Shown here piece after piece: positions 7,045-23,476 of a stretch of DNA of 23,476 nucleotides; within the stretch, counting starts at the first letter, position 1, and every line of letters begins with the position of its first letter. Source of the DNA: a virus; UHGV virus genome UHGV-0118082; one strand, given 5' to 3'. A model generated the notes under the pieces. That model had not been told where the DNA came from. It was given only the letters and a program-made list of their open reading frames with translations, and made no database searches. Both the position numbers and the translations under genes were made by a program.

Positions 7045-7076
7045 AATTACTCCTGTGGATTGATCCAGTAATTCCC

Positions 7077-7457: not shown

Positions 7458-7472
7458 TCGCTTTGTCAGCGA
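7458..7472 (-). promoter_or_regulatory. nutR boxB-like hairpin (P22 type)
   Basis: Minus-strand TCGCT-GACAA-AGCGA stem-loop between cro and cII; same pentaloop as the nutL hairpin at 9634-9648. Confidence 0.5.
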
Positions 7473-7510
7473 CGTAGGACGAATGTCCATTGTGAAAAGA
7501 GCGGTGTTAC

Positions 7511-7711: not shown

Positions 7712-7737
7712 ACAACCTCCTTAGTACAGGCAACCAT

Positions 7738-7801
7738 TATCACCGCTAGAGGTAAAATAGTCAACACGCACGGTGTTAGAAGTTTATCCCTTGCGGTGAT
7801 A
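7738..7801. promoter_or_regulatory. Right operator OR1-OR2-OR3 with divergent PR and PRM promoters
   Basis: Three 17-bp operators at 7738-7754 (OR1), 7762-7778 (OR2), 7785-7801 (OR3); PR -35 TTGACT and -10 GATAAT on minus strand; cI starts at 7812 with almost no leader. Confidence 0.85.
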
Positions 7802-7808
7802 GATTTAA

Positions 7809-8525
<717 letters not shown>

Positions 8526-8556
8526 TTGTTTTATTTTTCACGTAATAGGATGATTT

Positions 8557-8898
8557 ATGACACAATTTCAACTTGCATTAATCGCTAGAGAAGTTGATGG
8601 AGAAGTCATCCATCTTCGCACCAAAGACGGATACATCAATGCCACCGCGATGTGCAAGTCTGCGGGGAAGCTACTTGCTGACTATACACGACTAAAAACA
8701 ACACAAGATTTTTTTGATGAATTATCACGCGATATGGGGATTCCCATATCGGAGTTAATTCAATCATTTAAAGGCGGAAGAGCAGAGAATCAAGGGACTT
8801 GGGTTCATCCAGACATCGCAATTAATTTAGCTCAGTGGCTATCTCCAAAATTTGCAGTGCAAGTATCGAGATGGGTGCGTGAGTGGATGTCAGGTTAA
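8557..8898 (+). CDS. KilA-N/APSES-fold DNA-binding domain protein occupying the rexA position
   Basis: 113 aa; RTKDGYINATAMCKSAGK ... FKGGRAENQGTWVHPDIAINLAQWLSPKF parallels the APSES/KilA-N signature (DxYVNAT..LKAA.. / QGGxGKYQGTWVP...A..LA); AGGA Shine-Dalgarno upstream of the ATG. Confidence 0.7.
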   Translation: MTQFQLALIAREVDGEVIHLRTKDGYINATAMCKSAGKLLADYTRLKTTQDFFDELSRDMGIPISELIQSFKGGRAENQGTWVHPDIAINLAQWLSPKFAVQVSRWVREWMSG

Positions 8899-8937
8899 AG
8901 AGCGCCTGCCGAACTCCCTATCCACCTTAAGCGGTAT

Positions 8938-9316
8938 ATGACAAACCGAGGCAGAGTTCCTCATACGCACTTTTCTATGCTTAATGAACTGACGTTTAAC
9001 TTGGTTGCGCCACTTGAACAGGCCGGATATACGCTGCCAGAAAAAATGGTCCCTGATATTTCAGAGGGTAGGGTTTTCTCGCAATGGCTCCGTGACAACC
9101 GGGGGGTTGAGCCGAAGACATTCCCAACATATAACCATGAGTACCCAGATGGCCGGACATTCCCGGTACGTCTATACCCAAACGAATATTGCAGATTTCA
9201 AACAATACTTCAACGAAGTGTGGCTGCCTCAGTACGCTCCTAAATATTTTGCTGAACGAGACCAAAGGGCATTGACGTTGATTGAGAAAATCATGCTACC
9301 TGACCTTGATTCCTAA
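8938..9316 (+). pseudogene. Hypothetical gene split by a +1 frame change (two protein-like ORF halves in different frames)
   Basis: Frame of 8938 reads protein-like to ...RTFPVRLYPNEY then degenerates. Frame of 9005 is junk-like at first but protein-like from ...IADFKQYFNEVWLPQYAPKYFAERDQRALTLIEKIMLPDLDS; switch point near 9175-9195. Confidence 0.45.
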
Positions 9317-9324
9317 ATGTTATT

Positions 9325-9350
9325 CCCGGCCACAGAGCCGGGTTTTCTTT
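9325..9350 (+). terminator. Intrinsic terminator ending the cI-operon transcript (lambda timm equivalent)
   Basis: CCCGG-ccacagag-CCGGG hairpin followed by TTTTCTTT; surrounding sequence matches the lambda region between rexB and OL as recalled. Confidence 0.7.
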
Positions 9351-9502
9351 GCCTCACGATCCCCCTCACCCAAGAACACATAACCAATTGTATCTATTTG
9401 AAAATAAATAGATACAACTCACTAAACATAGCAGTTCAGATCTCTCACCTACCAAACAATGCACCCCTGCAAAAAATAAATTCATATAAAAAACATACAG
9501 AT

Positions 9503-9565
9503 AACCATCTGCGGTGATGAATTATCTCTAGCGGTGTTGACATAAATACCACTGGCGGTGATACT
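9503..9565 (+). promoter_or_regulatory. Left operator OL3-OL2-OL1 and PL promoter
   Basis: OL3 9503-9519, OL2 9523-9539, OL1 9547-9563 (TACCACTGGCGGTGATA); PL -35 TTGACA at 9537-9542 and -10 GATACT at 9560-9565; matches the canonical PL sequence except a few bases. Confidence 0.85.
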
Positions 9566-9633
9566 AAACACATCAGCAGGACGCACTACTCACCAGGGCG
9601 GTGAATATACAACGATTCAAATATGAATCTACG

Positions 9634-9648
9634 GCGCTGACAAAGCGC
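9634..9648 (+). promoter_or_regulatory. nutL boxB hairpin (P22 type)
   Basis: GCGCTGACAAAGCGC: 5-bp stem with GACAA pentaloop, the P22 boxB sequence as recalled; lies between PL and the N-like gene. Confidence 0.6.
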
Positions 9649-9776
9649 AATAACCAAAGTGAACTTTGGGGTGAATGCAGAAGCTAACCTTCTCGGCGGA
9701 GGCGCTTTGCAATGATTACGCTACCGGAGTTAGTCGCCCGGCTGTATTCACCGCCAAAGTTCACCAGGAGGTCTAT

Positions 9777-10160
9777 ATGACACGCAGAACTCAGTTCAAA
9801 GGCAATTCACGTTCTCGTCGTCGTGAGCGTTTAAAGGCAAAGGCATTAGCTAACGGCGTACTGGCCCGCGAAGAAGCAATAAGTTCAGAAGTATTACACC
9901 GCCCTACTCTAAGCAGAGCGCAGATTCAGGCTAAAGGTACTCACGAAACGCCTGAGCGCATAGAAGACGCTAAGCCAATTAAGTTCATGGCACAGGACGT
10001 GATCTGGCAACAGAAAGAATACAGACGCAATCTGGAGAGAGCGGCCATTGTGTACGCGAATGAGTTTGGACATAAGCAACCAGAAACTGGTGTATGTCTT
10101 CCAAATGTAGCTCTTTACGCAGCAGGATACCGGAAATCAAAACAACTGACGGCGAGATGA
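9777..10160 (+). CDS. N-like transcription antiterminator (arginine-rich motif; P22 gp24/phage 21 N type)
   Basis: ATG at 9777 with AGGAGG Shine-Dalgarno; N-terminus MTRRTQFKGNSRSRRRERLKAKA is an arginine-rich RNA-binding motif; C-terminus LPNVALYAAGYRKSKQLTAR resembles P22 gp24. The track start at 9675 would include nutL and is rejected. Confidence 0.7.
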   Translation: MTRRTQFKGNSRSRRRERLKAKALANGVLAREEAISSEVLHRPTLSRAQIQAKGTHETPERIEDAKPIKFMAQDVIWQQKEYRRNLERAAIVYANEFGHKQPETGVCLPNVALYAAGYRKSKQLTAR

Positions 10161-10220
10161 CTTGTGTTGGTCGCCAGAAAATGAAATTAGGCAGCAAACC
10201 ACTTATTTGAGAGCTGATAC

Positions 10221-10463
10221 ATGAGAGTAAAAACTATGGGCGCAAGCCCATTAAGCGGTCGTATTTTTCAAGGAACATTAAACACTGAAAAAGGAATGTG
10301 GGTAGGAAAGAGAGAAGATGTCACCGATCAGGCAGTTAGGGCAGTAGCCGAACACATGATGATAAAAGACCAGAAATATGCATACGAAACGAAGGATGGC
10401 AAATGGCTGATAATAAGTCATCAACTGGTTGATAAATTACCAGAAGAGTTTGTTGATGGTTAA
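10221..10463 (+). CDS. Hypothetical early-left protein
   Basis: 80-aa ORF downstream of N on the same strand; no recognisable motif. Confidence 0.45.
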   Translation: MRVKTMGASPLSGRIFQGTLNTEKGMWVGKREDVTDQAVRAVAEHMMIKDQKYAYETKDGKWLIISHQLVDKLPEEFVDG

Positions 10464-10591
10464 ATTTGCTTTGGAATAAGCAACAGAATAAACACTGCAC
10501 TGTGTATTCATTCCAACGAGTGAATACACGGAGCAATGTCGCTCGTAACTAAACAGGAGCCGACTTGTTCTGATTATTGGAAATCTTCTTT

Positions 10592-10619
10592 GCCCTCCAA
10601 TGTGAGGGCAATTTTTTTT
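10592..10619 (+). terminator. Intrinsic terminator in early-left operon (tL1-like)
   Basis: GCCCTC-caatgt-GAGGGC hairpin followed by a T8 run. Confidence 0.65.
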
Positions 10620-10632
10620 GACGGAGTAAACG

Positions 10633-10881
10633 ATGATAAAAACTGATTATCCTGCAGAACTTAAACAAAAAGTAATAACAGCAATTAAATGCTCTTTTAT
10701 CTCATGTCGTACAGATGAAGAACGACATGTCGTTGAGTGTGCAATTGTCGAGTTTCTCACAGCGATGGAATTTACCGCAGCAGAATCAATAGACGTATTA
10801 AAGCAATCAGACGGAAATGATATTGAAACAGATGATGTTATTGACCGGCTAATAAAATCATTCGAAGAAGAAATAGAGTAG
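10633..10881 (+). CDS. Hypothetical early-left protein (acidic)
   Basis: 82-aa ORF with GGAG-type Shine-Dalgarno; no recognisable motif. Confidence 0.5.
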   Translation: MIKTDYPAELKQKVITAIKCSFISCRTDEERHVVECAIVEFLTAMEFTAAESIDVLKQSDGNDIETDDVIDRLIKSFEEEIE

Positions 10882-10964
10882 CCGCCTGAGCGCGGCTTTA
10901 CCGCATACCAATAACGCTTCACTTGAGGCGTTTTCGTTATGCAATCAAATATAAGGAGTTACCC

Positions 10965-11099
10965 ATGATGCACTTTCAGCTCGCGGGTAGCGGCGTCATG
11001 TCCGCTTTCTACCCGCACGAATCTGAATTATCACGCCGAGTTAAACAATTAATCAGAGCAGCAAAGAAACAACTGGAGGCGTTATGCGCAATGAAATAG
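10965..11099 (+). CDS. Small hypothetical protein (44 aa)
   Basis: AAGGAG Shine-Dalgarno 7 nt upstream of ATG; below track cutoff; overlaps start of next small ORF. Confidence 0.3.
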   Translation: MMHFQLAGSGVMSAFYPHESELSRRVKQLIRAAKKQLEALCAMK

Positions 11100-11236
11100 C
11101 CATCAATCACCAGATGCTTCGTGCAGCACAGAACAAAGCAGTAATAGCCAGATTTATTGGTGATTCAAAAATGTGGCTTGAAGCAAATAAAGCGATGAAA
11201 TCAGCTATCAACCTTCCGTGGTATCGCAGGAAATGA
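11084..11236 (+). CDS. Small hypothetical protein (50 aa)
   Basis: ATG at 11084; chained start/stop overlaps with flanking small ORFs, typical of phage early operons. Confidence 0.3.
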   Translation: MRNEIAINHQMLRAAQNKAVIARFIGDSKMWLEANKAMKSAINLPWYRRK

Positions 11237-11343
11237 GTTTTACAGATAACTGGTCAGACGAAGAATTTATTCGTCAGATGAAAGAAATGCTCAATCAGCA
11301 CAAAGAACAGGAGAAAGATGATGATTCTGACTCTGAAAGATGA
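11233..11343 (+). CDS. Small hypothetical acidic protein (36 aa)
   Basis: ATGA overlap with preceding ORF; very short, weak evidence. Confidence 0.25.
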   Translation: MSFTDNWSDEEFIRQMKEMLNQHKEQEKDDDSDSER

Positions 11344-11629
11344 GCGTGAAATATCGCAAATAATCGCAAGTTTTACTGATGAAGATTACGAACGAATCAA
11401 CAGTGAAGTTGATCGCCTCTGCAAACGTTGCGACCCAATAAGCGAAATGCTTCGCTCATATAAACCAGATGAACACACTAAGGACGCTATCGACTGGCTG
11501 GAAGATTATGACTGTAACTATCAGGAAAAAGCCGCTGAATGGTTCTGGGATGCAATAACCGAAAGAGTTAAGGCTGAATATGCCTTCGCAATATTCAAAC
11601 GCAGACACATTTTTGGAGAAGCAGCATGA
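11318..11629 (+). CDS. Hypothetical early-left protein
   Basis: 103-aa ORF, AGGAG Shine-Dalgarno upstream; ATGA overlap with the recombinase gene downstream. Confidence 0.5.
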   Translation: MMILTLKDEREISQIIASFTDEDYERINSEVDRLCKRCDPISEMLRSYKPDEHTKDAIDWLEDYDCNYQEKAAEWFWDAITERVKAEYAFAIFKRRHIFGEAA

Positions 11630-12537
11630 GCAATATCGTTGAATTCGTTAAACAGCAAGAGCAGTTATTCTGCGGAGCATTGACTGAACAGACGGTGACA
11701 TGGGCTAAGGAAAGCCAGTTTGCAATTCAGTATTTCCAGAAAAATGATTACCTGGCTAAAACAGCACTGGCAAATCCAACCAGCGCACAGAACGCCATCA
11801 TCAATGTTGCGGCGATCGGTATCACCTTAAACCCGGCTAGCAAACTGGCTTATCTGGTTCCGCGCGACGGCATGGTGTGCCTTGATATCAGTTATATGGG
11901 ATTGCTCCATATTGCAATGGAGTCTGGTGTTATCTCATGGGGTCAGGCAAAACTTGTTCATGCTAACGATACCTATGAGTCAAACGGGCTTGATAAAGCA
12001 CCAACCCATAAATACAACGCCTTCGGTGATCGTGGTGATATTGTTGGCGTTTACTGCACAGTTAAGACGCCAGCAGGTGATTATCTAACGGAAGAGATGA
12101 GTCTGGCTGAAATTGAGGCTGTAAGGAAAACAAGCAAGGCAGCATTCAGCGATAAAGGACCATGGGTAAATCACTGGAATGAGATGGCGCGAAAGACGGT
12201 CGTAAAGCGTGCAAGCAAGTATTGGCCTAAGGCATCACGTCTTGATAGTGCTATTCACGTACTAAACGAAGAAGAAGGTGTGTGGACTGAACCAGTTATG
12301 CCGCACAAATCAGAGGAAGATATCCGCGAAGATGAACGGAAACGACAGCAGGAAATTATGGAAAAAGCACAACTTCTTTGTGATGAAATGGCTCAGGCTG
12401 AAAACATGGATGATTTGAAGCGATATTTTGCAGAAGCATATCGCCTGACATCTGGAATGAAATTGCAGCAGAACGTACAAGCCATTTACATAGAATGCAA
12501 AGCGAAACTGGAGGTTGCCAGTGAGCAAACTGTATGA
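11626..12537 (+). CDS. RecT/Bet-family single-strand annealing recombinase
   Basis: 303 aa; GPWVNHWNEMARKTVVKRASKYWP parallels Rac RecT GPWVTHWEEMAKKTAIRRLFKYLP as recalled; early-left position of lambdoid recombination genes. Confidence 0.85.
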   Translation: MSNIVEFVKQQEQLFCGALTEQTVTWAKESQFAIQYFQKNDYLAKTALANPTSAQNAIINVAAIGITLNPASKLAYLVPRDGMVCLDISYMGLLHIAMESGVISWGQAKLVHANDTYESNGLDKAPTHKYNAFGDRGDIVGVYCTVKTPAGDYLTEEMSLAEIEAVRKTSKAAFSDKGPWVNHWNEMARKTVVKRASKYWPKASRLDSAIHVLNEEEGVWTEPVMPHKSEEDIREDERKRQQEIMEKAQLLCDEMAQAENMDDLKRYFAEAYRLTSGMKLQQNVQAIYIECKAKLEVASEQTV

Positions 12538-13003
12538 AATTGCCAATGAATACGCAAAATTGATGGATTCAGATTTAGAACCAGAGATGATTGCTGACAC
12601 AATAGAAGGCATGGAAGGAGAATTTACCGATAAAATAGAGCAACTTCTTTCCGTCATTAAAAATGAATCTGGTTATGCTGAACGCCTCAAGGAAGAGGCA
12701 AAGTCACTGAATGAGCGAGCCGCAGTAATTCAAAATAAGATTGACAGCATCAAATCATATATAGCGTCATCGCTTGAAATGGTTGGCAAGAAAAATATTC
12801 GAGCAGGTATTCACCAGGTAACAATCCGCAAACCGTCAGAAATTGTAGAAATAATCGACTCAAGCGCCCTTCCTCCTGAATACGTTGAGTTTGAAACGAC
12901 AATTAAAGCCGACAAACTGGCAATCAAACACCAACTAAAAGCAGGAATAAATATCCCCGGTGCTCAACTCAAAGTTGGGAAACCTTCACTTCTTATCAAA
13001 TAA
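12521..13003 (+). CDS. Gp157-like protein commonly paired with RecT-type recombinases (function unknown)
   Basis: GTG at 12521 preceded by GGAGG (track start 12515 is TTG); ~160 aa, charged helical N-terminal half; immediately follows recT with overlap. Confidence 0.5.
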   Translation: MSKLYEIANEYAKLMDSDLEPEMIADTIEGMEGEFTDKIEQLLSVIKNESGYAERLKEEAKSLNERAAVIQNKIDSIKSYIASSLEMVGKKNIRAGIHQVTIRKPSEIVEIIDSSALPPEYVEFETTIKADKLAIKHQLKAGINIPGAQLKVGKPSLLIK

Positions 13004-13014
13004 CGGTATCGCCT

Positions 13015-13329
13015 ATGAAAAAGACTCCATGGGAGAAATGGGAAGTCGATTTCTTGCGCGAAGTAGCGGCGACAATGCCAGTTGAAGTTATTGCTGAAAA
13101 ACTGGAAAGGACTGAAAAATCAGTTATGGCGAAAGCAACAAGGATTGGCGCTGACATTGTTAGCCGACTTCGTGGAAGACGCTGGACAAGAGCTGAAGTA
13201 TCACTTTTCGGTAAGTTCTCCGCAGAAGAAATAGCAATTGCAACCTGCCGCTCAATTTATTCAGTAAGAGCTATGCGATACAAGCTAAAAAAACTTGATG
13301 AAGAAAGAGCAGGCATACGAATAAATTAA
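13015..13329 (+). CDS. Hypothetical protein with two tandem W-x-E/R-containing helical repeats (possible DNA-binding)
   Basis: 104 aa; internal repeat [13 protein letters not shown]... and [13 protein letters not shown]... Confidence 0.45.
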
Positions 13330-13345
13330 CAAAGAGGAATTTACC

Positions 13346-13510
13346 ATGAGAGGACTTGCATACAATCCCGGCATTCTTCCGGCAGAAATGATTATTCGCC
13401 AACGCGTAAAGCCAATGCCATCGAGAGAGGAATTGCTTAAGAGAAATTCTTTTCCATCAGTGAATCAAAACAAATATCTGAATGCGATGTGGCGGAGTGG
13501 AAAAAAATGA
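13346..13510 (+). CDS. Small hypothetical protein (54 aa)
   Basis: AGAGGA Shine-Dalgarno, ATG at 13346; stop overlaps the ATG at 13507 (ATGA). Confidence 0.3.
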
Positions 13511-14091
13511 AACAAATGACACTAATTGAGATGGATGGTTTTCTGAAAGGCAAATGCATCCCAAGTGATTTAAATGTTAACGAAACAAACGCTGAATATC
13601 TTGTCCGTAAGTTCGGTGAACTTGAATCAAAACTAGAAACGGCGTTGCGGGAGTGTCGTTCTGCTGGAATCACGATTGATAACCTTGAGGCCAAGTGCGC
13701 GGCGCTGGCTGTGGAGAATGCGTGGCTGAATAAATTTATCGTACAGAGTTGCTACGTGTTTGACGGCGAGCAGGGTGAACTATCTGATGCGTATATCTGC
13801 GCAATAGACGGAAGGATGCCGCAAACCCAAGTCACCGACGCTTTTTTGGATGAAGTGAAGACTGAAGCACGCAAGGAGGGAGCTTACTTTGTGGCGAACA
13901 GAATGCTGGCTGCCTGGGAAGCTGGTTTTATTGATGATACTGCGAAGAACGCCGCGGATATTGCCAGGATGATTATTACCTCTACTGAGTTTATGGCTAA
14001 TGCGCCGGAAGGCGATTTTGACCGCTCATTCTCTGATGGCGTTCTCGAAGATATCGCCGCCCAGCTTCGCAAAGGATGTGATCAAAAATGA
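13507..14091 (+). CDS. Hypothetical early-left protein
   Basis: Track ORF begins at GTG 13489; first in-frame ATG at 13507 overlaps upstream stop; 194 aa; no recognisable motif. Confidence 0.5.
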
Positions 14092-14705
14092 CAATCACAA
14101 AACAACGAGTAGAAGAAATCATATCGCGCATTGAAATGTATGGGCATGGTGCAGGGTATACCGTTGACGAGGTTTATGACCTTGCTGTACTGGCGTTGAA
14201 TTTATCAAATATCGCAAACCTTAAGCGATACGAGCTTGATATGGATGGTTGCGACTCGTTCGGTCAGGATTGTGGCGCTGACATGACTGAAGATCCTGAT
14301 GGCGATTATGTCCTGTTTGATGACGTGGTTAAGTTGTTTGAGTTTGATACAACCACCAAGAAGTTAGAAACCCCAGCCACCGACGCTTTCCTTGCTGAAG
14401 TACTGGCGCAGGTGGTGAAATCGCCATCCAATGCCGTTCAGTCAGTAATTGCAGAGCGTCAACGCCATCAATCAGCTGAGGGATGGACGCCTGAGCATGA
14501 TGACCAGTACAGCAAATCGCAGTTACTGTGGGCATCCTCATGCTACGTACTGAATGCCATCCATCCATTTAACCGCATTCCATTTGACTGGCCGTGGACA
14601 CCAGAATGGTGGAAGCGGACAAATCCACGCCGTGACCTGGTGAAAGCTGGCGCACTTATTCTGGCCGAAATTGAACGCATAGACCGCCAGGAGTCCGCCC
14701 AATGA
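14088..14705 (+). CDS. Hypothetical early-left protein
   Basis: 205 aa, ATGA-coupled to flanking genes. Confidence 0.5.
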   Translation: MTITKQRVEEIISRIEMYGHGAGYTVDEVYDLAVLALNLSNIANLKRYELDMDGCDSFGQDCGADMTEDPDGDYVLFDDVVKLFEFDTTTKKLETPATDAFLAEVLAQVVKSPSNAVQSVIAERQRHQSAEGWTPEHDDQYSKSQLLWASSCYVLNAIHPFNRIPFDWPWTPEWWKRTNPRRDLVKAGALILAEIERIDRQESAQ

Positions 14706-15208
14706 GCAACATCAACAAACAGGCGCTGCGTGAAGCGGCGGAGAAAGCAACGTGTGGTGTGTGGTCGCTCGAATATGGAGAGGAGAGATTTGATGCTGGT
14801 GATGCGCTAATTCATCGTGAAGTTGTTGGATATCTTCCCATTTGCAGAATTGAAGGAGCGCATCCAGAAAGCGGTTTCGATGAAGATTTCCAAATGGAAC
14901 AGCAGGCCAATGCTGAATTCATCACCGCAGCCAATCCGGCTACCGTCTTGGCGCTGCTGGATGAGCTGGAGAAGATGCAGGCGCAATCGTCCAAATGGTG
15001 CGAAGCCTTCCATAAAGCCGTTTCCGTTGGCGCTCGGTATGAGGAGCGGATTGCTGAACTGGAAGCACGGGAAATATCGCTCCCAGAACGTAGCAGTATG
15101 CTTCATCGAACAGATTTTCACGAGGATTACCAAACGGTAATGGCATACAAAGTTTCTGAAGTCATCGCTGCAATCCGCGCCGCAGGCATTCGCATCAAAG
15201 GAGAGTGA
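14702..15208 (+). CDS. Hypothetical early-left protein (loosely reminiscent of Ead/Ea22-like prophage proteins)
   Basis: 168 aa, ATGA-coupled; last gene before an intrinsic terminator. Confidence 0.5.
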   Translation: MSNINKQALREAAEKATCGVWSLEYGEERFDAGDALIHREVVGYLPICRIEGAHPESGFDEDFQMEQQANAEFITAANPATVLALLDELEKMQAQSSKWCEAFHKAVSVGARYEERIAELEAREISLPERSSMLHRTDFHEDYQTVMAYKVSEVIAAIRAAGIRIKGE

Positions 15209-15288
15209 TATGAGCACTGGATGATATGGGCGCAGATAGCGCATGCAGACGTAACCAATATTCGAATTGAAGAACTGAAAGAACACCA

Positions 15289-15313
15289 AGCCGCCTGATG
15301 GCGGTTTTTTATT
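15289..15313 (+). terminator. Intrinsic terminator after the early-left gene block
   Basis: CCGCC-tgat-GGCGG hairpin followed by TTTTTTATT. Confidence 0.7.
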
Positions 15314-15355
15314 GCCTGATTTGCAGGTTCGATTCCCTATTCGGAGATAGCACTC

Positions 15356-15556
15356 ATGCAACACGAACTACAACCTGATTCACTGGTTGATTTGAAATTC
15401 ATCATGGCTGATACTGGCTTTGGTAAAACCTTCATCTATGACCGGATTAAGTCCGGCGACCTGCCAAAAGCCAAAGTTATCCACGGGCGAGCAAGATGGT
15501 TATATCGTGACCATTGTGAATTCAAAAATAAGCTCTTAAGCCGCGCCAATGGGTAA
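15356..15556 (+). CDS. AlpA/Xis-like small HTH protein (excisionase or regulator) upstream of integrase
   Basis: 66 aa; LKFIMADTGFGKTFIYDRIKSGDLPKAKVIHGRARWLYRDHCEF fits the AlpA/excisionase HTH pattern; GGAGA Shine-Dalgarno. Confidence 0.7.
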   Translation: MQHELQPDSLVDLKFIMADTGFGKTFIYDRIKSGDLPKAKVIHGRARWLYRDHCEFKNKLLSRANG

Positions 15557-15828
15557 AATAGCGGGTAAAATATTTTTCACATCTAAAAAACACCATTCCA
15601 ATCAATCCCCTGCCGCCTCAAGTAGATGTCTGCAGGGGACAATACCTTTTCATTTCATCACGTTTCAACACACTTCACCTCCCCCCTTAAAACCAGCAAA
15701 ATCAGGGCCTGTCGCCTTGAACATGGTTTCAGTTGATTTCATGACATTACATGATTCTGATGGTATCGTTGATGGTACTCACGGTTCGATAAACCGATAC
15801 CATCAACTGACAACAAAGATTACTCTCC
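15557..15828 (+). promoter_or_regulatory. Integrase leader with direct and inverted repeats; candidate Int arm-type sites/att region
   Basis: GGGTAAAATA direct repeat (15551-15560, 15563-15572); inverted repeat GATGGTATCG / CGATACCATC (15759-15768, 15795-15804) plus an extra GATGGTAC copy; hairpin CCCCTGC...GCAGGGG at ~15607-15638. The track ORF 15549-15842 is considered non-coding. Confidence 0.3.
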
Positions 15829-17100
15829 ATGGCACTAAATGAGCTATCACCCAAGAAAGTTGAAAACGCTAAACCCAAAGAAACAGACTACAAACTGACG
15901 GATGGGGGAAGCCTGTATCTTTTAGTTAAAAAGAACGGGACCAAGGCATGGCGAATGAACTACAGATTTAACGGCAAACAAGCTACGCTGGCTTTGGGCG
16001 TTTTCCCAGACGTTTCGCTGGCACTTGCCCGTAAGCGTAGAGATGAAGCAAGGCAACTTTTAGCCGACGGTGTTGATCCCAGAGTATCTAAAAAAGCAGC
16101 GCCAACAGAACCCGCCTCTGCTACATTCCAGACAATCGCTTTAGAGTGGCATAAAGGCTCTATAGGCCATCCCTCATGGAAAGAGATTACCCGCACTAAA
16201 ATTTTAAGAGAAATGGAAAATCATATTTTCCCATATATCGGAAATAAACCCATCGACTCATTAAAAACAAGTGACCTGTTGCCATTATTGGTGAGGATGA
16301 GTGATCAGGGAATTGGAGCAACAACAGGAAGAGTGAAAACTACTCTTGCAAGCGTTTTCCGGTACGCTATTCAGCGTGGAATTGTTGAATACAATCCTAC
16401 CCATGATCTAAGAGGAGCAATTTCCAGCCCCAAAATAAAGCATCGCCCTGCACTTCCGTTAGAACGATTACCCGAATTAATATCAAAAATTGATAGCTAT
16501 ACAGGGAGGCCGTTAACTAAGCTGGCAGTATTATTTTCTCTTCATACTTTTGTTCGCTCCAGTGAACTGAGACACGCAAGATGGGAGGAAATTAATTTTG
16601 AAAATGCAATGTGGACTATTCCTGCTCAAAGAAAAAGAATTGATGGGGTAAAATATTCAGAGCGTGGGGCAAAAATGGGCAGTATTCATTATGTTCCATT
16701 ATCTAATGAAGCTATTGATGTTCTCGAAGCTATTAAAAAAATAAGTGGTGAGTATGAACTTATTTTCCCCGGAGATAGTAACCCTTACAAACCAATGAGT
16801 GAGAACACAGTTAATAAGTCATTAAGAATTATGGGGTACGACACGCAGGTGGACATTTGCCTTCATGGATTTAGGGCAATGGCGTGCTCAGCCCTGACAG
16901 AATCAGGCTTATGGTCGAGGGATGCAGTAGAACGGCAAATGAGCCATCAAGAACGAAATGAAGTGCGAGCCGCTTATGTACACTTAGCTCAGCATATGCA
17001 TGAACGTCGTCGGATGATGCAATGGTGGTCTAATTATATTGAAGCTAACACTGATAGATATATTGCCCCCTATAAAATGAAAAAACTACGCGTTGTTTGA
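15829..17100 (+). CDS. int: Tyrosine integrase, P4-type (DUF4102-like N-terminal arm-binding domain)
   Basis: 423 aa; N-terminal LYLLVKKNGTKAWRMNYRFNGK and C-terminal PMSENTVNKSLRIMGY...HGFRAMACS...ERQMSHQERNEVRAAYVH closely parallel P4 Int as recalled. Confidence 0.95.
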   Translation: MALNELSPKKVENAKPKETDYKLTDGGSLYLLVKKNGTKAWRMNYRFNGKQATLALGVFPDVSLALARKRRDEARQLLADGVDPRVSKKAAPTEPASATFQTIALEWHKGSIGHPSWKEITRTKILREMENHIFPYIGNKPIDSLKTSDLLPLLVRMSDQGIGATTGRVKTTLASVFRYAIQRGIVEYNPTHDLRGAISSPKIKHRPALPLERLPELISKIDSYTGRPLTKLAVLFSLHTFVRSSELRHARWEEINFENAMWTIPAQRKRIDGVKYSERGAKMGSIHYVPLSNEAIDVLEAIKKISGEYELIFPGDSNPYKPMSENTVNKSLRIMGYDTQVDICLHGFRAMACSALTESGLWSRDAVERQMSHQERNEVRAAYVHLAQHMHERRRMMQWWSNYIEANTDRYIAPYKMKKLRVV

Positions 17101-17174
17101 AAATAAGAAAATGGCTAATAGTAGTAAAGTCTGCTATTCGCCCCATTTTACCATATGTGCATACAGGTGACGTG

Positions 17175-18149
17175 ATGAGCGATAATACACGATTAAATGT
17201 TTGGGAAAGGAATAGTATTCCTGTAATGGAATTTTGCTCCCTAAAACGAGCTGCTGAACTACTTAATTGCCAAATTGATGACCTTATCCATTTTGCTCAA
17301 ATTGGAATTATCGAATTTTGCTTAGAATTAAATGGTTTCGAAGCTGCGCTAATGATGATGCGTAAAGGTGGAGATTTTAAAGATTGGGAAAACATGTACC
17401 CACCCAGAGTATTAAACTATAGTAATAAATCTGCATTAAGCCATTTCATACCAAAAGCAAAATTCGATATTGATTATACAGAAGATAAGCCATTTTCACC
17501 TCCAAAACAAATATACCATTTAGAAAACAAACCAAATATAAAAAGCCCATTAATCTTACTTTCTGGATTGTGGTCTATATGTGTCATCAGCCCAACATCT
17601 TCATTATACAAAGAACTAAAGGTATATGGTAAAGCAAGGCTATTAGCACATGATATTTCTTTTAAAGAAGCTAATATGCCATTCACTAATGCTGCATTTG
17701 GCAGTGATGAGTGGGTAATATTAGCAATGTCCCCTTTCGAAGGCTTATCATCAATAGAGGGATTAGTATCTCCATCTAATAAAAATATTATTGGAAATAT
17801 AACACTGGATGATATCTATTTAACAAGATACCAAATAGAAAAATTAGATAACGGTGTTGGCAAAGAGCTACCCAGCTATGTGAATGGTGGTGTATCCAGC
17901 ATCGAAAGCATCCGAAGAGTGCATGGTAATGTTGAAGCATCAGCAACAAAAAGAGAGGCAGTGTACAAAGCAGCTATTTATTGGTTACTAAATGACCCAG
18001 CATCTTGCAATGGAAAACGAGGAAAACTGACTATTGACGCGTGGGCAGATAAAATCGTGGCAGAAAGAAACAATCCAAAAACAAAGGTTGAACTTGGAAA
18101 AGATAAGATAAAAGAATGTCTTAGCTCATCTAAAGCAGGAAGATTTTAA
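17175..18149 (+). CDS. Hypothetical cargo protein, AT-rich, with possible N-terminal HTH; function unknown
   Basis: ATG at 17175 with AGGTGA Shine-Dalgarno (track start 17097 is TTG overlapping int stop); 324 aa; N-terminus FCSLKRAAELLNCQIDDLIHFAQIGII looks helix-turn-helix-like; no catalytic motif recognised; clearly more AT-rich than int and primase flanks. Confidence 0.6.
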   Translation: MSDNTRLNVWERNSIPVMEFCSLKRAAELLNCQIDDLIHFAQIGIIEFCLELNGFEAALMMMRKGGDFKDWENMYPPRVLNYSNKSALSHFIPKAKFDIDYTEDKPFSPPKQIYHLENKPNIKSPLILLSGLWSICVISPTSSLYKELKVYGKARLLAHDISFKEANMPFTNAAFGSDEWVILAMSPFEGLSSIEGLVSPSNKNIIGNITLDDIYLTRYQIEKLDNGVGKELPSYVNGGVSSIESIRRVHGNVEASATKREAVYKAAIYWLLNDPASCNGKRGKLTIDAWADKIVAERNNPKTKVELGKDKIKECLSSSKAGRF

Positions 18150-18220
18150 GTGGTAATATTTTATACCATCATAAAAACAAAATAGTGGCACTGATAATTT
18201 AGCCCTAACCTTGCCATCAT

Positions 18221-18248
18221 CTGCCGTGTTCATTACATAACACGGCAG
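18221..18248 (+). promoter_or_regulatory. Perfect 10-bp inverted repeat immediately upstream of alpA, overlapping its ribosome-binding region
   Basis: CTGCCGTGTT-cattacat-AACACGGCAG; right arm ends 8 nt before the alpA ATG; loop carries the CATTACA motif repeated at 18702-18747. Confidence 0.45.
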
Positions 18249-18256
18249 GTAATTTC

Positions 18257-18466
18257 ATGACATTAAAAACTTACCCTATCACCGGGCATGCCCGCCCACG
18301 GGCTACTGCTGACTTTTTGCAAGTAAGCACAGTTACTCTCTGGCGCTGGGAAAAAAACAATCCTGAATTTCCAAAATCCACACGTATTTCAAAACGGGTA
18401 ACTGTTTACGATGCACAAGAAATTAGACAGTGGGTAAAAGCTCAATCCTCAGATGCTGATAAATAA
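18257..18466 (+). CDS. alpA: AlpA-family transcriptional regulator (P4 Vis-like)
   Basis: 69 aa; FLQVSTVTLWRWEKNNPEFPKSTRISKRVTVYDAQEIRQWV fits the AlpA HTH pattern. Confidence 0.8.
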   Translation: MTLKTYPITGHARPRATADFLQVSTVTLWRWEKNNPEFPKSTRISKRVTVYDAQEIRQWVKAQSSDADK

Positions 18467-18517
18467 TATGACGACCTTAGAAAAATGGGAAAGAAGAAAA
18501 TCTTCCCCATGTATTTA

Positions 18518-18697
18518 TCAGTTCTTTGGTTCGGAACCACGACTTTGTAGCTCTTTGCGGATAATGCGTTTGATCCAAGCAGCCAGTGATTCATCACCAT
18601 CCTGCTGCTGTGCTTCTTCCATTAACTCACGCAATTCAGGGTCAAGTCTGAACTGGAATGGTGGATTACCACGTCTTTCGTTCTTGTGTGTTGACAC
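18518..18697 (-). CDS. Small ribbon-helix-helix-like protein (59 aa), divergent from the satellite early operon
   Basis: GTG start at 18697 inside a palindrome; translation ...PPFQFRLDPELRELMEEAQQQDGDESLAAWIKRIIRKELQ has the beta-strand then helix pattern of RHH/Arc-type proteins; no ATG start, weak evidence. Confidence 0.4.
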   Translation of the reverse strand: MSTHKNERRGNPPFQFRLDPELRELMEEAQQQDGDESLAAWIKRIIRKELQSRGSEPKN

Positions 18698-18747
18698 GTC
18701 AATTACACCTATTGTAATGTGCTTATGTGTAATGACACATTACACAC
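18691..18747. promoter_or_regulatory. Divergent promoter/operator region with three dyad-symmetric elements
   Basis: TTGAC-ac-GTCAA (18691-18702); ATTACA-cctat-TGTAAT (18702-18718); TGTGTAATG-aca-CATTACACA (18727-18747). Confidence 0.5.
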
Positions 18748-18828
18748 AAGGAATCAAAATAGCAACGCCCCGGAGTGTTTGCGGCACTGCCGAGGCGTCT
18801 GACCAAAGCGTTAGATGAGGTAACGAAA

Positions 18829-19005
18829 ATGGCTAAACAGAAGTGTACCTGGTTATTTGCGGCGATCAACCGCAGTCAACGCAATGCCCGTCCTGTGATG
18901 TTAAGGATCACCGCAGATAACGAGCGCTCAGCGCGGCGCAGACTTGCCCCGGACTATGTGCTGAGCTTTGCCGGTCGCATTCCCTGTGGAGGTGAACATG
19001 CGTAA
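18829..19005 (+). CDS. Small protein, possibly Icd-like (host cell division inhibitor family) - tentative
   Basis: ATG at 18829 with GAGGT Shine-Dalgarno (track start 18775 is GTG); 58 aa; TWLFAAINRSQ...LRITADNERSARRRLAPDYVLSFAGRIP resembles the Icd-like pattern as I recall it. Confidence 0.45.
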   Translation: MAKQKCTWLFAAINRSQRNARPVMLRITADNERSARRRLAPDYVLSFAGRIPCGGEHA

Positions 19006-19357
19006 TTATCCGCAACCCGGCGAACGCTGGCAGCATGAGCGTGGCTGGACTGTCACGATTATCAGATTAACTGAAGCCTCGCCCTCCGTGGCGCTGGTTA
19101 ACCCTGAATTCAGCTGTGAAGTGCTGATTCGTCATGACAGCGACAATAAGCTTTCTTCCTGCCCTCTGGCATGGTTTGAGCAGCGGTATACGCGCCTGTT
19201 TAATGCCCCGCTCTTTAAACCTTCGCTAGCTCCCGCGGGGGGTAGCGGCTCTGGCTCGCTGACGCTGCATCCGTCGGTGGTATTTACCCGCTGGCGGGAG
19301 CGCAGCATACGGCGTTCTGCTGAACCTGACGACAGTCACTATTCAAAGTTTCTCTGA
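18998..19357 (+). CDS. Hypothetical satellite early protein
   Basis: ATG at 18998 with GGAGG Shine-Dalgarno 5 nt upstream (track start 18968 is TTG); 119 aa; overlaps upstream stop. Confidence 0.5.
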   Translation: MRNYPQPGERWQHERGWTVTIIRLTEASPSVALVNPEFSCEVLIRHDSDNKLSSCPLAWFEQRYTRLFNAPLFKPSLAPAGGSGSGSLTLHPSVVFTRWRERSIRRSAEPDDSHYSKFL

Positions 19358-19388
19358 CAAAACACCGCTGAAAACGGAGTAATCCACG

Positions 19389-19673
19389 ATGAATATTTCA
19401 AACGGGCACAACGGTGCTCAGGGCCACGCTTTGCCTGAAAAACACAATAGCGGTGCTTTTGCGTATGGGTTGTCAGAGGACGGTTTCGGAAAGCTGGACC
19501 GCGCCAGAAAGGCCTGCGACATGTTGCAGCTTCTCTTTTCTGAATACCCCTCGCAGGGCGGAACGCTGGATGCAGGATGTGCGCCAGGCATCGCCGCGCT
19601 GATGGAGTACCTGCGGGCAGATTTGACGGATATTGCGCACAGTTGCGAACTGATTGAAGGAGGCACCCAATGA
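19389..19673 (+). CDS. Hypothetical satellite early protein
   Basis: 94 aa; ATGA overlap with next gene; GC-rich codon usage consistent with neighbours. Confidence 0.5.
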   Translation: MNISNGHNGAQGHALPEKHNSGAFAYGLSEDGFGKLDRARKACDMLQLLFSEYPSQGGTLDAGCAPGIAALMEYLRADLTDIAHSCELIEGGTQ

Positions 19674-20053
19674 ACCAGCCGCAGGTTTCTATTTTTCCGG
19701 CAGAAATGACCACTGCGCTTTACCGGCGGGCTATTGCATCGGCCTGGCGCCAGAAAGCGCTGACCGAAACCGGCTGCGATCACTATGGTCCGCACAGCCT
19801 GACGGTTGAACGTATTGAAATGGCCATTGCCCTGCATATCGAGTGCGCACTGATTAACGAATATGGCGAAGCACAGGGAGCAGCGGCTGCACTGGCGCTG
19901 CTGACTGACATGCTGGAGCCATCATTGCTGACCGCGCCACCGGTACTGACTGTGCGCGGCTGTGAAGTGATGGCGGAGCTGTACCGCACACTTCCGGCGG
20001 CATTTGATGACTTCTGCAGCTCGGGTGTATCGCTGTATCAGGGGGAAATATGA
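19670..20053 (+). CDS. Hypothetical satellite early protein
   Basis: 127 aa; GAAGGAGG Shine-Dalgarno; ATGA overlap with the primase gene. Confidence 0.55.
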   Translation: MNQPQVSIFPAEMTTALYRRAIASAWRQKALTETGCDHYGPHSLTVERIEMAIALHIECALINEYGEAQGAAAALALLTDMLEPSLLTAPPVLTVRGCEVMAELYRTLPAAFDDFCSSGVSLYQGEI

Positions 20054-22722
20054 CAACACAGACGGTTACGCAGATTTCAGCCGCAGCGCGGGGAAAATGG
20101 CCCGTCATTCTGCAGATGCTGCGTATTGATGTACCTGAAAACGGCAGGCACGGTCCCTGCCCGAAATGTGGGGGCAAGGATCGCTTCCGCCTCGATGACC
20201 TCGACGGGCGCGGGACGTGGATTTGCAGCCAGTGCGGCAATGGTGATGGTCTGGATCTGGTTAAGCTCATAACCGGTTACGGCATCAGAAAGGCAGCGCA
20301 GGAGGTGGCGCAGGTGCTTAATGTGCCGGATGTGCAGGAACTGCCCGTTAAGCCCGCCAGGCAAAAAGCCCCTAAACGCGATATGAGCCTTACCGTGGCG
20401 GCCCTGATGAAAGAGAGTCACACGGGAGAAAGCCCCTATCTGACCGGAAAAGGGTTCGCCGGATACCCGGCCTCCCTGACCGGGAGCGTGCAGCATATCA
20501 GTGGTAAGGATTTCCCTGCCGGTTCCCTGCTGTTACCGCTCACGACAAACGCCGGAGCCGTGACCGGTGCACAGCTTATCGCCCCGACGGGTGAAAAAAG
20601 CATACTGCCCGGCAGCACGATGAAAGGCGCGTTTGTGGCGCTCAGCCCGTTACCGTCTGAACCGCCGGTACAGGTGGTGATTACCGAAGGTTACGCCACG
20701 GCGCTGACGGTAAGCCAGCTCACCGCCGGATGCGTAGTGGCGGCCATATCGGCGGGCAACCTGCCCAACGTCGCACAGGCGCTGCGGGCACGCTGGCCTG
20801 AGGTAAAAATTATCATCGCCGGTGATAACGATTTTCAGGACGGGGGCGAGAATCCCGGCAGATCCTTTGCTGAACGGGCGGCAAAATCAGTCGGTGGCTG
20901 GGTGACGCTGCCACCGGGAGAAATTAAAGCTGACTGGAATGACTTCCACCGTGAGCACGGTATTACACGTGCCCGTGAAGCCTTTCGTAACGGTCTTGTA
21001 CTGTGCGGAGAAGGCCGCACGCAGTTGCCGCACGGGTTCCGTCTTACCCAGGAATATCTCTGGTATGAAAAACAGGTACAGCGCAACGGTGAGACGGAGA
21101 TCCAGAACGTCAAAATATGCAACCCGTTGCGCGTGACGGCAATCACCTGCGATGCTGATGGCGGTAATTTCGGGCGACTGCTGGAGTGGGAAGATACATG
21201 GGGAGAGCGCCGCCGCTGGGCGATGCCGATGGAAATGCTCAGTGGTAGCGGTGAGGAACTACGCCGGGTACTGCTGGTTAACGGGCTGTCCTATATCAGC
21301 ACCACCGGTGAGGCCCGCGCCCGCCTGATGGAATATATCTCGCTGTGTAAACCGGAACGCCGCGTGACCTGCGTCAGCCGCACTGGCTGGCATGGTCAGG
21401 TTTACGTCCTGCAGGATGAGGTCAGCGGTGAAGGTGCAGAGGGTGTCATTCTCCAGACCACTTCCGTGCAGGGGCGCGATTTCCGTGTGTCAGGTACAAC
21501 GGAGGAATGGCGGGAGCACGTTTCCCGTTACTGCACCGGTAACTCCCGCGTGGCGTTTGCCGTCAGTCTGGCCTTTGCTGCACCCCTGTTACGGCTGGTT
21601 GGGATGGACGGCGGCGGCTACCACCTCAAGGGGGAATCGACTGACGGTAAGACCACCACCATGAAAGCGGCAACCTCCGTTTGTGGCGGGCCTGATTACT
21701 GGCAGACGTGGCGGGCAACCGGCAACGCGCTGGAGGGATGCGCCAGCCGCCGCAACGATGCCGCCATGATGCTTGATGAGATCCGGGAGGTGGACGGACG
21801 CGAGGCGGGTAATATCGCCTACATGCTGGCAAACGGTCAGGGCAAGGGCCGTGCCGGTACGGACGGTGAGCTGCGCACCCGTAAGCAGTGGCGGCTGCTG
21901 TTCTTTTCAACCGGCGAGCTGTCACTGACCGAACATGCGGCAAAAGCCGGTGAGCGTACCTTTGCCGGGATGGAAGTCAGGATGATCCAGATCCCCAGCG
22001 ATTCCGGGAAATTTGGCGTATTTGAGGAGCTGCACGGCTTCGACAGCGGCAAGGCTCTGGCGGAACATCTGGAGTGGGCCACGTCCAGCTACTACGGTTC
22101 GCCGTTCAGGGAGTGGCTGAAAGCCCTGACCGCTGACCTTAACGGGCTGACGGCACAGGCAAAGTCACTGATGAAGGAATATACAGCCGCCCTGACCCCG
22201 AAAGATGCGGGTAATCAGGTAGGCCGGGCTGTGAACCGCTTTGCACTGGTGGCGATGGCGGGCGAGCTGGCAACCCGGCTGGGTATTACCGGCTGGCCTG
22301 AGGGTGAAGCGCTGCGGGCAACCCGCGTCTGCCTGAACGCATGGCTGAAAGATCGCGGGCACACCGCCAATCAGGAAGATATTGCCGCACTGGAGCAGGT
22401 ACGCAGCTTCTTTACCGCGAATCAGTACAGCCGCTTTGCTGACTGGCACGACGAGCGTAACCGCCCCGGCAATATGGTGGGCTGGCGCAGGGTGGAGAAA
22501 GGCAGTACCGCGCAGGGCACGGAGGCCGTCACCACGTTCTACGTCATGCCGTCCGGCTGGAAAGAAATCTGCCGGGGATTTGACCCGCGCAAGGTGGCGC
22601 GTCTGTGCGCGGATCGTGGATACCTGCTGCCCTCCACCGATGGCAAGCTGCAGACAACCATTCGCCCGCCAGAGATGAATCCCCGCAGACTCTATGTCTT
22701 CAACAGCGAGGTGCCGGGTTAA
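20050..22722 (+). CDS. Primase-helicase (P4 alpha-like: zinc ribbon + TOPRIM primase + P-loop NTPase)
   Basis: 890 aa; CPKCGG...CSQCG zinc ribbon; TOPRIM-like acidic motifs (VITEGYATA, IIAGDND); Walker A GESTDGKTT and Walker B-like MMLDEIRE. Confidence 0.9.
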   Translation: MTTQTVTQISAAARGKWPVILQMLRIDVPENGRHGPCPKCGGKDRFRLDDLDGRGTWICSQCGNGDGLDLVKLITGYGIRKAAQEVAQVLNVPDVQELPVKPARQKAPKRDMSLTVAALMKESHTGESPYLTGKGFAGYPASLTGSVQHISGKDFPAGSLLLPLTTNAGAVTGAQLIAPTGEKSILPGSTMKGAFVALSPLPSEPPVQVVITEGYATALTVSQLTAGCVVAAISAGNLPNVAQALRARWPEVKIIIAGDNDFQDGGENPGRSFAERAAKSVGGWVTLPPGEIKADWNDFHREHGITRAREAFRNGLVLCGEGRTQLPHGFRLTQEYLWYEKQVQRNGETEIQNVKICNPLRVTAITCDADGGNFGRLLEWEDTWGERRRWAMPMEMLSGSGEELRRVLLVNGLSYISTTGEARARLMEYISLCKPERRVTCVSRTGWHGQVYVLQDEVSGEGAEGVILQTTSVQGRDFRVSGTTEEWREHVSRYCTGNSRVAFAVSLAFAAPLLRLVGMDGGGYHLKGESTDGKTTTMKAATSVCGGPDYWQTWRATGNALEGCASRRNDAAMMLDEIREVDGREAGNIAYMLANGQGKGRAGTDGELRTRKQWRLLFFSTGELSLTEHAAKAGERTFAGMEVRMIQIPSDSGKFGVFEELHGFDSGKALAEHLEWATSSYYGSPFREWLKALTADLNGLTAQAKSLMKEYTAALTPKDAGNQVGRAVNRFALVAMAGELATRLGITGWPEGEALRATRVCLNAWLKDRGHTANQEDIAALEQVRSFFTANQYSRFADWHDERNRPGNMVGWRRVEKGSTAQGTEAVTTFYVMPSGWKEICRGFDPRKVARLCADRGYLLPSTDGKLQTTIRPPEMNPRRLYVFNSEVPG

Positions 22723-22750
22723 GGCTTTGCGTGAGTCTTATTTATTAAGG

Positions 22751-22946
22751 GTAACAGGTGAAACAGGTGGAACACCCGTATTTTACAAGGGCTAAACCTG
22801 TTTCACCTTCTGAAATAGTGAGGTGGAACAGGTGGAACGCCAGCCGATCCGCTGTTCCACCTTGTTACCTGCGATGTTTCACCTGTGATGTGCATATAAA
22901 TGTTTTACAAAACAATGCTGTAACACCTGTTCCACCTGTTTCACCG
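22751..22946. repeat. Iteron cluster / candidate replication origin for the primase-helicase
   Basis: At least eight copies of GGTG(A/G)AACAGG or its complement, in both orientations, flanking an AT-rich stretch at 22889-22920; reminiscent of the TGTTCACC repeats of P4 ori/crr. Confidence 0.65.
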
Positions 22947-23122
22947 CATCCGGGACATAAAGCAGGCTGAAACAGAGGCATTTTTATCTGGCTGGCTGTC
23001 ATGGCCGCGTCTGAATAACCGCAAACGCCCGTTGTGCCAGCCACCACACACTGAGCGCCGATAGTGCGCTTGTGTCAGTCACGACACAATTGACGTAACG
23101 AACCAACCCGGCAGGAGAAGTC

Positions 23123-23476
23123 ATGAACAACACCGCAGAGAATAACAACCTTTCCACTTTTCCGGCTGTAACGCAGCAGGCAATGGAAACCCTGAACACG
23201 GCCAGAAGCGCATGGCTTGAAGCACGTCGTCGGCAGAAAGCGGCAGCGGATAATATTGCGACAATCCGCCAGCGCCGGGCTGAAATGGAAGCCACGACGA
23301 ACGCGCTGAATGAGGAGTGGCGCACGCTGTTTCGTGAAAGTCAGGGCGTAGTCTCAAAGGAAATGAAAAAACTGCGCACGGAAATTGCGCTGGGACGAGA
23401 AACGCTTGAGGATTTTGATGAACTGCTGGCAGCTCAGGAAAGCGAAAATGCCTTATTACCGCAGGAAGCCGGGAAA
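23123..23476 (+). CDS. Hypothetical helical protein, 5' part only (runs off window end)
   Basis: ATG at 23123 with AGGAGA Shine-Dalgarno; open through window end (118 codons); charged helical sequence MNNTAENNNLSTFPAVTQQAMETLNTARSAWLEARRRQKAAADN... Confidence 0.5.
   Translation, partial: MNNTAENNNLSTFPAVTQQAMETLNTARSAWLEARRRQKAAADNIATIRQRRAEMEATTNALNEEWRTLFRESQGVVSKEMKKLRTEIALGRETLEDFDELLAAQESENALLPQEAGK

Follow-up and report, generated by a model that had tools for sequence, protein, structure and literature searches.

The repeat array directly 3′ of the primase-helicase gene was very probably the replication origin of a P4-like satellite. Judged from its sequence and by analogy with characterized elements, it would belong to the SaPI/PICI Rep-ori type, would be read by the primase-helicase encoded immediately upstream, and would operate without a crr. 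The origin is of an ordinary kind, in a family where none had been described. The repeat statistics, the conservation of the array geometry with lineage-specific words, the single cluster, the domain make-up of the protein, and its fold similarity were all computed directly. The original prediction, that the array is a candidate origin of a satellite and has an initiator specificity of its own, was well supported by the comparative evidence. Throughout, "the window" refers to the whole 23,476-nt stretch of DNA that was analyzed.

Sequence and layout of the iteron array

Eight exact copies of GGTGRAACA were found on the two strands of the window, all of them within positions 22757-22945, compared with an expectation of 0.32 ± 0.57 copies per window; eight or more copies were reached in none of 100 dinucleotide-preserving shuffles. 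The cluster of repeats claimed 3′ of the primase-helicase was thus borne out. An unbiased scan for repeated 8-mers ranked the 250-nt stretch holding the array first in the window, and the same scan recovered the three controls, P4 ori, P4 crr, and the tested ori of EcCICFT073. The repeat had initially been described as an 11-mer, GGTGRAACAGG, which was exact in only five copies; the repeat itself stood, with a unit of 9 bp, and the trailing GG mostly belonged to the tandem unit that followed. As had been proposed, the unit exceeded the type I octamer of P4 by one base (GGTGAACA in P4 vs. GGTG[A/G]AACA here).

A near-copy with one mismatch (GGTGGAACG at 22831) and three degenerate iterons (AGGGTAACA at 22748, TGTTACC at 22863, and TGTAACACC at 22919) completed the array. 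The degenerate iterons were seen only through alignment with relatives, in which they stood in the conserved register. In total, 12 sites were present, arranged as 3(+), 1(-), 2(+), 3(-), an AT-rich spacer of 33-35 nt, and 3(-) (Table 1), with the first site beginning 26 nt past the stop codon of the primase-helicase gene. The left and right outer triplets formed a perfect 18-nt inverted repeat, the arms of which were separated by 153 nt.

The AT-rich core noted in the original prediction was present, at ~75% A+T, but its enrichment was modest and it was not central, with nine sites to its left and three to its right. A short and off-centre AT-rich stretch counts against the origin reading, the corresponding stretch being roughly central in SaPIs. 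In SaPI/PICI-type Rep-ori modules, the AT-rich region has two or more iterons on either side, in opposite directions. Here, the three sites nearest the spacer on either side were all (-); the opposed orientation was that of the outer triplets, and an extra (+) iteron abutted the spacer in several lineages.

The complete element held this single cluster, and no second iteron cluster was found in it. The exact P4 octamer was absent from the array, with one chance copy elsewhere in the window. No DnaA boxes occurred near the array or within 7 kb, which was a neutral point because the initiator would load itself. The intergenic region had no DNA match among 50,697 phage records. Two open reading frames overlapping the array, 22758-22970(+) and 22865-23047(-), were rejected as genes; in the three identical loci that were examined, RefSeq annotated no CDS at this place, and a 1-nt indel was found among close relatives.

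Table 1. Features of the satellite and its iteron array (window coordinates unless a locus is named).
Feature	Position	Strand	Basis or remark
Integrase	15829-17100		
324-aa ORF, cargo position between integrase and alpA	17175-18149		No Pfam or PHROG match
AlpA	18257-18466		
DUF5375 gene (P4 orf106 family)	19670-20053		
Primase-helicase initiator gene, 890 aa	20050-22722	+	
C-terminal winged-helix coding region, putative iteron reader	22432-22719	+	
TCTTAT box just past stop codon	22736-22741	+	Invariant in alignment with relatives; ≤40 nt from stop in 43/52 loci
Left outer triplet, tandem, 9-bp spacing: AGGGTAACA (degenerate), GGTGAAACA, GGTGGAACA	22748-22774	+	Motif count, alignment
Iteron 4: GGTGAAACA	22799-22807	-	Motif count, alignment
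Iterons 5 and 6, tandem: GGTGGAACA, GGTGGAACG (one mismatch)	22822-22839	+	Motif count, alignment
Iterons 7-9: GGTGGAACA (22853-22861), degenerate GGTAACA (22863-22869), GGTGAAACA (22875-22883)	22853-22883	-	Motif count, alignment
AT-rich spacer, putative DNA-unwinding element	22884-22918	.	~75% A+T
Right outer triplet, tandem: GGTGTTACA (degenerate), GGTGGAACA, GGTGAAACA	22919-22945	-	Motif count, repeats, alignment
T-run then TCTGGCTGG (TCTGGCNGG) box, outside iterons	22987-22995	+	36/52 loci, +190 to +290 nt from stop
Psid-like Delta/Ogr-type late promoter, two TGT-N12-ACA dyads 38 bp apart (23033-23050, 23071-23088)	23033-23088	+	
sid/psu-like capsid-size gene, 5′ part (ATG 23123)	23123-23476	+	RefSeq annotation of identical loci; PHROG 6165 Psu-like, E = 7.6e-94
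Displaced arrays in relatives: GTGGGAACA, 10-11 copies	L041 ~12800-13050; L049 ~12800-13050; L058 ~12850-13100		

The primase-helicase is a chimera

The protein encoded upstream of the array is a chimera of a P4-type primase, a SaPI-Rep/Cch-type helicase, and a Rep-type winged helix. Pfam domains were assigned to a Zn ribbon (aa 32-68), a TOPRIM domain (aa 209-304), and a DUF927 helicase (aa 330-612), which were followed by a helical lid (~aa 641-794) and the winged helix (~aa 795-890). The gene had been termed alpha-like, a description that held for the primase third, as the Zn-ribbon/TOPRIM part (residues 6-316) was 37% identical to P4 alpha and was the only part similar to it; the description failed for the helicase, which was DUF927, and for the winged helix, which resembled that of SaPI Rep. 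In P4 alpha, the primase continues into D5_N/DUF5906/Pox_D5, rather than into DUF927.

In its DUF927 part, the protein matched by sequence the SCCmec helicase Cch (5dgk) and the solved SaPI initiator-helicase (8tch). For the C-terminal region, searching PDB sequences with a profile produced marginal matches only, and fold comparison was needed; the closest fold to the winged helix was SaPI Rep, followed by MarR/PadR-type winged helices. Pfam HTH_56, the Cch HTH domain, was matched by 8 of 42 homologues of the C-terminal region. The origin-binding domain of P4 alpha was absent among the top fold matches, so a related origin-binding domain cannot account for the suggested "related yet distinct" specificity.

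Conservation of the array among relatives

One genome per species was scanned, yielding 55 loci with relatives of the primase-helicase at 57-100% protein identity, from Escherichia to Proteus and Xenorhabdus; 52 of the 55 were usable, all from Enterobacterales. An array lay within ~300 nt 3′ of the gene in 48 of the 52 loci and ~1.1 kb downstream in three more, giving 51 of 52; an absence of the repeats from homologous elements, which would have counted against the original prediction, was thus not seen. Four loci were at first read as lacking an array; a locus-wide scan placed it ~1.1 kb downstream in three of them, and the fourth (L056) had a disrupted gene. The displaced arrays belonged to a clade of 57-63% identity (Klebsiella spallanzanii, Scandinavium, and Apirhabdus), in which a gene stands between the stop codon and the array.

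The geometry of the array (3+, 1-, 2+, 3-, spacer, 3-) could be aligned column by column across lineages. The aligned AT-rich stretch was a constant 32-33 nt and contained 62-81% A+T in 9 of 10 lineages, compared with 51-64% for the whole intergenic region. Each locus used one word in all of its copies, and the word differed by lineage: GGTGRAACA (class A), GGTGTAACA (class B), GGGGTAACA, CTGGTAACA ((C/G)TGGTAACA), GCGGTTACA, GTGGATACA, TGTAGTACA, and GTGGGAACA. Within the 9-bp word, the 3′ half, (A/T)ACA, was constant, and the 5′ half varied between lineages. Direct and inverted copies switched in concert, which indicated recognition by a protein rather than formation of a hairpin.

Among 11 distinct class-A sequences, 14 of 108 positions in iterons were variable compared with 30 of 90 in spacers (Fisher p = 0.001, for sequences that are related and not independent), and the iteron variation was largely A/G toggling at position 5. 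The array was retained beside the primase-helicase gene whatever genes lay downstream, with sid/psu and delta following only in nearer relatives. It also accompanied proteins of other composition. Two proteins with DUF927 and the winged helix lacking TOPRIM (L052, Brenneria corticis; L053, Serratia sp. Ag1) had arrays of classes A and B, and GGTGRAACA arrays followed the genes of DUF927 proteins only 28-40% identical in 10-11-kb IMG/VR viral contigs (L075 and L091). The persistence of arrays without TOPRIM, or at 28-40% identity, indicated that the origin type goes with the helicase and winged helix and not with the P4-like primase. The viral contigs were scanned for two tandem iterons, which returned mostly unrelated tandem repeats; the matches kept were inverted pairs ~170 nt apart or those adjoining a DUF927 gene. 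Small records labeled as plasmids and carrying homologues were considered as evidence of autonomous replication and discarded, the best of them (OX345456.1) being a linear draft contig.

The exact P4 octamer was found downstream of the gene in none of the 52 loci, and a second cluster of the lineage's own word was found within ~9 kb in none of 48. The latter result bears on whether the array could instead be an auxiliary element to which the initiator binds (a crr-like enhancer, for instance, or a copy-number or incompatibility ("handcuffing") site), with initiation occurring elsewhere. The crr of P4 is needed in cis without being the start site, and plasmid iterons commonly double as copy control. 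The position is also suggestive, as crr, the second alpha-repeat cluster of P4, sits directly 3′ of alpha in the annotation of NC_001609. However, an auxiliary site presupposes a true ori, and with no second cluster in the 48 loci or in the complete element there was no candidate for one elsewhere; moreover, the array holds its own AT-rich spacer, of conserved length. We therefore regard a purely auxiliary array as unlikely, although a secondary insulating or copy-control role may be added to the origin function favored here.

Coupling of the iteron word to the protein

Mutual information between word and protein was confounded by phylogeny, and close-pair contrasts were used instead. Closely related proteins were found beside differing words in several groups: the window group (A) and the Pantoea group (B), at 91% identity; Proteus terrae (B) and P. 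vulgaris (C); and Xenorhabdus BG5 (B) and other Xenorhabdus (D). In the two tightest, near-identical locus pairs with differing words, nucleotide identity through the helicase ran at 94-99%, fell to a trough of 79-82%, and rose again to 86-96% (L027/L030), or ran at 90-96%, fell to 63-68%, and rose to 81-95% (L025/L028). In both, the trough covered only the last ~140 nt of the gene and the array. Past residue 320, each pair differed at one to six positions in residues 321-794, compared with three to six in the 96-residue winged helix, where positions 846, 861, 866/867, 870, and 878 recurred. In the structural model, these residues map to the beginning of the second helix and to the beta-hairpin after it.

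No single residue column told iteron class A from class B in every lineage, and the word-switching pairs differed in the N-terminal primase third as well; because of these two observations, the winged helix is a probable rather than an established determinant of specificity. A tentative extension is that the family constitutes a natural set of orthogonal initiator-origin pairs, in which word switches could be set by a few winged-helix residues (candidates 846, 861, 866/867, 870, and 878), the residues and the array being exchanged or diverging jointly as a small cassette, and in which selection might favor satellites that can share a cell without titrating one another's initiator. At least eight words were observed, with differences of one to four bases in the 5′ half of the 9-bp unit. 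Three genomes carried two elements with a different word in each (L007/L048, Pantoea stewartii, A/B; L014/L054, Pantoea leporis, B/D; L044/L015, Enterobacter intestinihominis, A/D), which was consistent with selection for non-interfering replicons, three cases not being significant.

Genomic context and the late operon

The window held a P4-like satellite prophage from ~15630, where 12 nt of a tRNA-Arg 3′ end marked its start; no tRNA gene lay inside the window. Identical DNA in complete E. coli genomes was inserted at tRNA-Arg or tRNA-Leu, the element measured roughly 10 kb, and the module was present in 650 of 5,426 complete E. coli genomes. The gene order was integrase, cargo, AlpA, Icd-like, two small genes, DUF5375, primase-helicase, array, sid/psu-like, and ogr/delta-like, the last lying beyond the window, after the sid/psu-like gene, in the RefSeq annotation of identical loci. 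The core set of P4-like satellites was therefore present (integrase, alpA, primase, sid/psu-like, ogr/delta-like, and tRNA insertion); neither an epsilon/ash homologue nor a separate psu gene was identified in the element. The 324-aa ORF may be a defence or accessory gene, because related elements hold different cargo in that position. Rfam gave no matches in the satellite part (15600-23476), and because the P4-type C4/CI immunity RNA was not detected by that search, immunity control in the satellite may differ from that in P4.

The remainder of the window (1-15629) was a degraded P22-like/lambdoid prophage in tandem with the satellite. It contained gtrA/gtrB/gtrC-like O-antigen modification genes (1403-4306), a CI-like repressor (7812-8525), and RecT (11626-12537). 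Its tailspike gene (4342-6459, -) abutted a truncated replication-O gene (6462-6896, -), a junction that suggested a large internal deletion.

Two short boxes flanked the iterons, TCTTAT on the side of the gene and, ~40-50 nt past the last iteron, a T-run with the TCTGGCNGG box; both were kept across lineages that differed in iteron word. Farther downstream, starting 88 nt past the array and separate from it, were the two TGT-N12-ACA dyads of the Psid-like promoter, which from established knowledge of P2/P4 late promoters we take to be the Delta/Ogr activator site. The dyad pair recurred at each of the 13 loci whose sid/psu-like match was full-length, and at 15 of the 22 that had any sid/psu-like match.

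The array lies between two co-directional operons, and no sigma-70 promoter or intrinsic terminator was predicted in a scan of 22600-23200. Because neither was predicted in 22722-23123, early transcription could enter the late operon unless blocked, possibly by the initiator-bound array. An array serving in transcriptional control of the sid/delta late operon, as an operator or read-through roadblock bound by AlpA, the Icd-like repressor, or Delta, would draw on the same facts, since protein binding at the array could insulate the late genes. We consider this very unlikely as the primary function: the late operon has its own Delta/Ogr-type promoter downstream of the array, the geometry was retained in lineages with no sid/psu downstream, and the divergence trough linked the array with the 3′-terminal part of the primase-helicase gene and not with upstream regulators. 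A structural element, namely a cruciform or a hairpin on single-stranded DNA that might signal primase recognition or packaging, is hardly credible. The single-strand fold of the 216-nt region, although far better than that of shuffles (-45.5 kcal/mol, z = -6.6), was rejected as evidence for it, being a by-product of the inverted iterons, and tandem direct copies, which do not pair with each other, switched word together with the inverted ones; the P4 cos packaging site, for its part, lies at the genome ends, downstream of psu.

Comparison with known replication origins

The closest counterparts of the array were the Rep-ori modules of SaPIs and PICIs. SaPI Reps bind 6-12 iterons directly 3′ of rep through a C-terminal winged helix and need no loader, their origins have an AT-rich region between oppositely oriented iterons, and in SaPI5 the primase and Rep are fused (PMC9371898). 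A rep-ori segment of similar layout from an E. coli PICI replicates autonomously, and deletion of the ori lowers maintenance (PMC6092414). The satellite shared with SaPI1, SaPIbov1, SaPI5, and EcCICFT073 an initiator-helicase with a C-terminal winged helix, iterons directly 3′ of the initiator gene, an AT-rich stretch with iterons on both sides (opposed, in the satellite, between the outer triplets), a single cis site, and the lack of DnaA boxes, and SaPI Rep (8tch) and Cch (5dgk) were the closest matches in sequence and fold to its DUF927 helicase and winged helix. It differed from them in its iterons, which are 9 bp long compared with 5-6 bp in SaPIs, in the fixed 3-1-2-3 / 3 pattern of its 12 sites with the AT-rich stretch off-centre, in the fusion of its initiator to a P4 alpha-type Zn-ribbon/TOPRIM primase, and in its host element, a P4-like satellite of P2-type helpers (sid/psu-like, delta) and not a PICI. 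EcCICFT073, the tested E. coli PICI, differed further in having an unrelated D5_N/Pox_D5 Rep and the word GGTAGACA. Its origin (L060 6997-7284, E. coli CFT073) contained GGTAGACA/GGTAGATA words, partly at 9-bp spacing, beside the D5-type Rep. Similar GGT..ACA words are thus found with three initiator types, P4 alpha, the PICI Rep, and the DUF927 Rep.

By analogy with these systems, we infer the binding, melting, loading, and replication steps of the satellite as follows. The C-terminal winged helix of a hexameric DUF927 initiator-helicase would bind the 9-bp iterons (12 sites, with the outer triplets facing each other), and this binding would distort and melt the adjacent AT-rich spacer of 33-35 nt. 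The helicase would then load itself on the opened DNA, the fused P4 alpha-type TOPRIM domain would lay primers, and a host polymerase would amplify the excised satellite, which would subsequently be packaged into capsids resized by the product of the neighboring sid-like gene.

The resemblance to P4 ori and crr put forward in the original prediction was upheld in part, for the word and the position; the two-site design of ori plus crr in P4 had no counterpart, as one cluster only was present. The likenesses were several: a nearly identical word (GGTGAACA vs. GGTG[A/G]AACA) in both orientations around an AT-rich stretch of ~35 nt; like ori, a location immediately before a Psid promoter that has two TGT-N12-ACA dyads (in P4 37 bp apart, at 9494 and 9531, with sid at 9583) and a CTGGC..GG box beyond the repeats; and, like crr, a location directly 3′ of the primase gene. 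The P4 ori box, CCTGGCTTGCCGG, was similar to the T-run/TCTGGCTGG box of the window and occupied the corresponding relative position. In contrast, P4 has a type I octamer (TGTTCACC/GGTGAACA) where the satellite has the 9-mer GGTGRAACA, with a tandem spacing of 10-11 bp compared with 9 bp. The P4 ori and crr form a pair ~4.5-5 kb apart, whereas the satellite has one cluster and no type II repeats. P4 alpha combines D5_N/DUF5906/Pox_D5 (SF3 helicase, origin binding) where the satellite protein has DUF927 and a Rep-type winged helix, and the early and late operons are divergent in P4 but co-directional in the satellite. Because the octamer, the two-site design, and an initiator with an alpha-type helicase and origin-binding domain were all missing, the array is to be classed as a Rep-ori module inside a P4-like satellite and not as a P4 ori/crr. 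That the word departs by no more than one base from the type I repeat of P4, although its reader belongs to a different family, would mean either convergence or an origin kept through an initiator swap.

Theta plasmids (pSC101, R6K, RK2, P1, and F) likewise have repeated initiator words beside an AT-rich unwinding element, with a specificity that varies by replicon. Their iterons are direct repeats of 17-22 bp, unlike the 9-bp words in both orientations found here, and their RepA, pi, and TrfA initiators, which have tandem winged helices, recruit DnaA and DnaB, whereas the satellite initiator is itself helicase and primase.

Implications for P4-like satellites

In enterobacteria, P4-like satellites rank with the most abundant mobile elements, and they are major vehicles for genes of anti-phage defence. 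To our knowledge, their replication is understood only for P4 itself, through alpha together with ori and crr. The conceptual gain of our findings is modest, because SaPI/PICI biology predicts a layout of this kind; the practical gain lies in exact coordinates for a candidate minimal origin and in a natural series of iteron/winged-helix specificity switches. The iteron word could also be used as a marker for typing satellites by their likely replicon compatibility. As far as sequence comparison indicates, a large branch of P4-like satellites would have a different and simpler replicon than P4, in which a P4-type primase and a SaPI-Rep/Cch-type helicase act with one compact 12-site origin.
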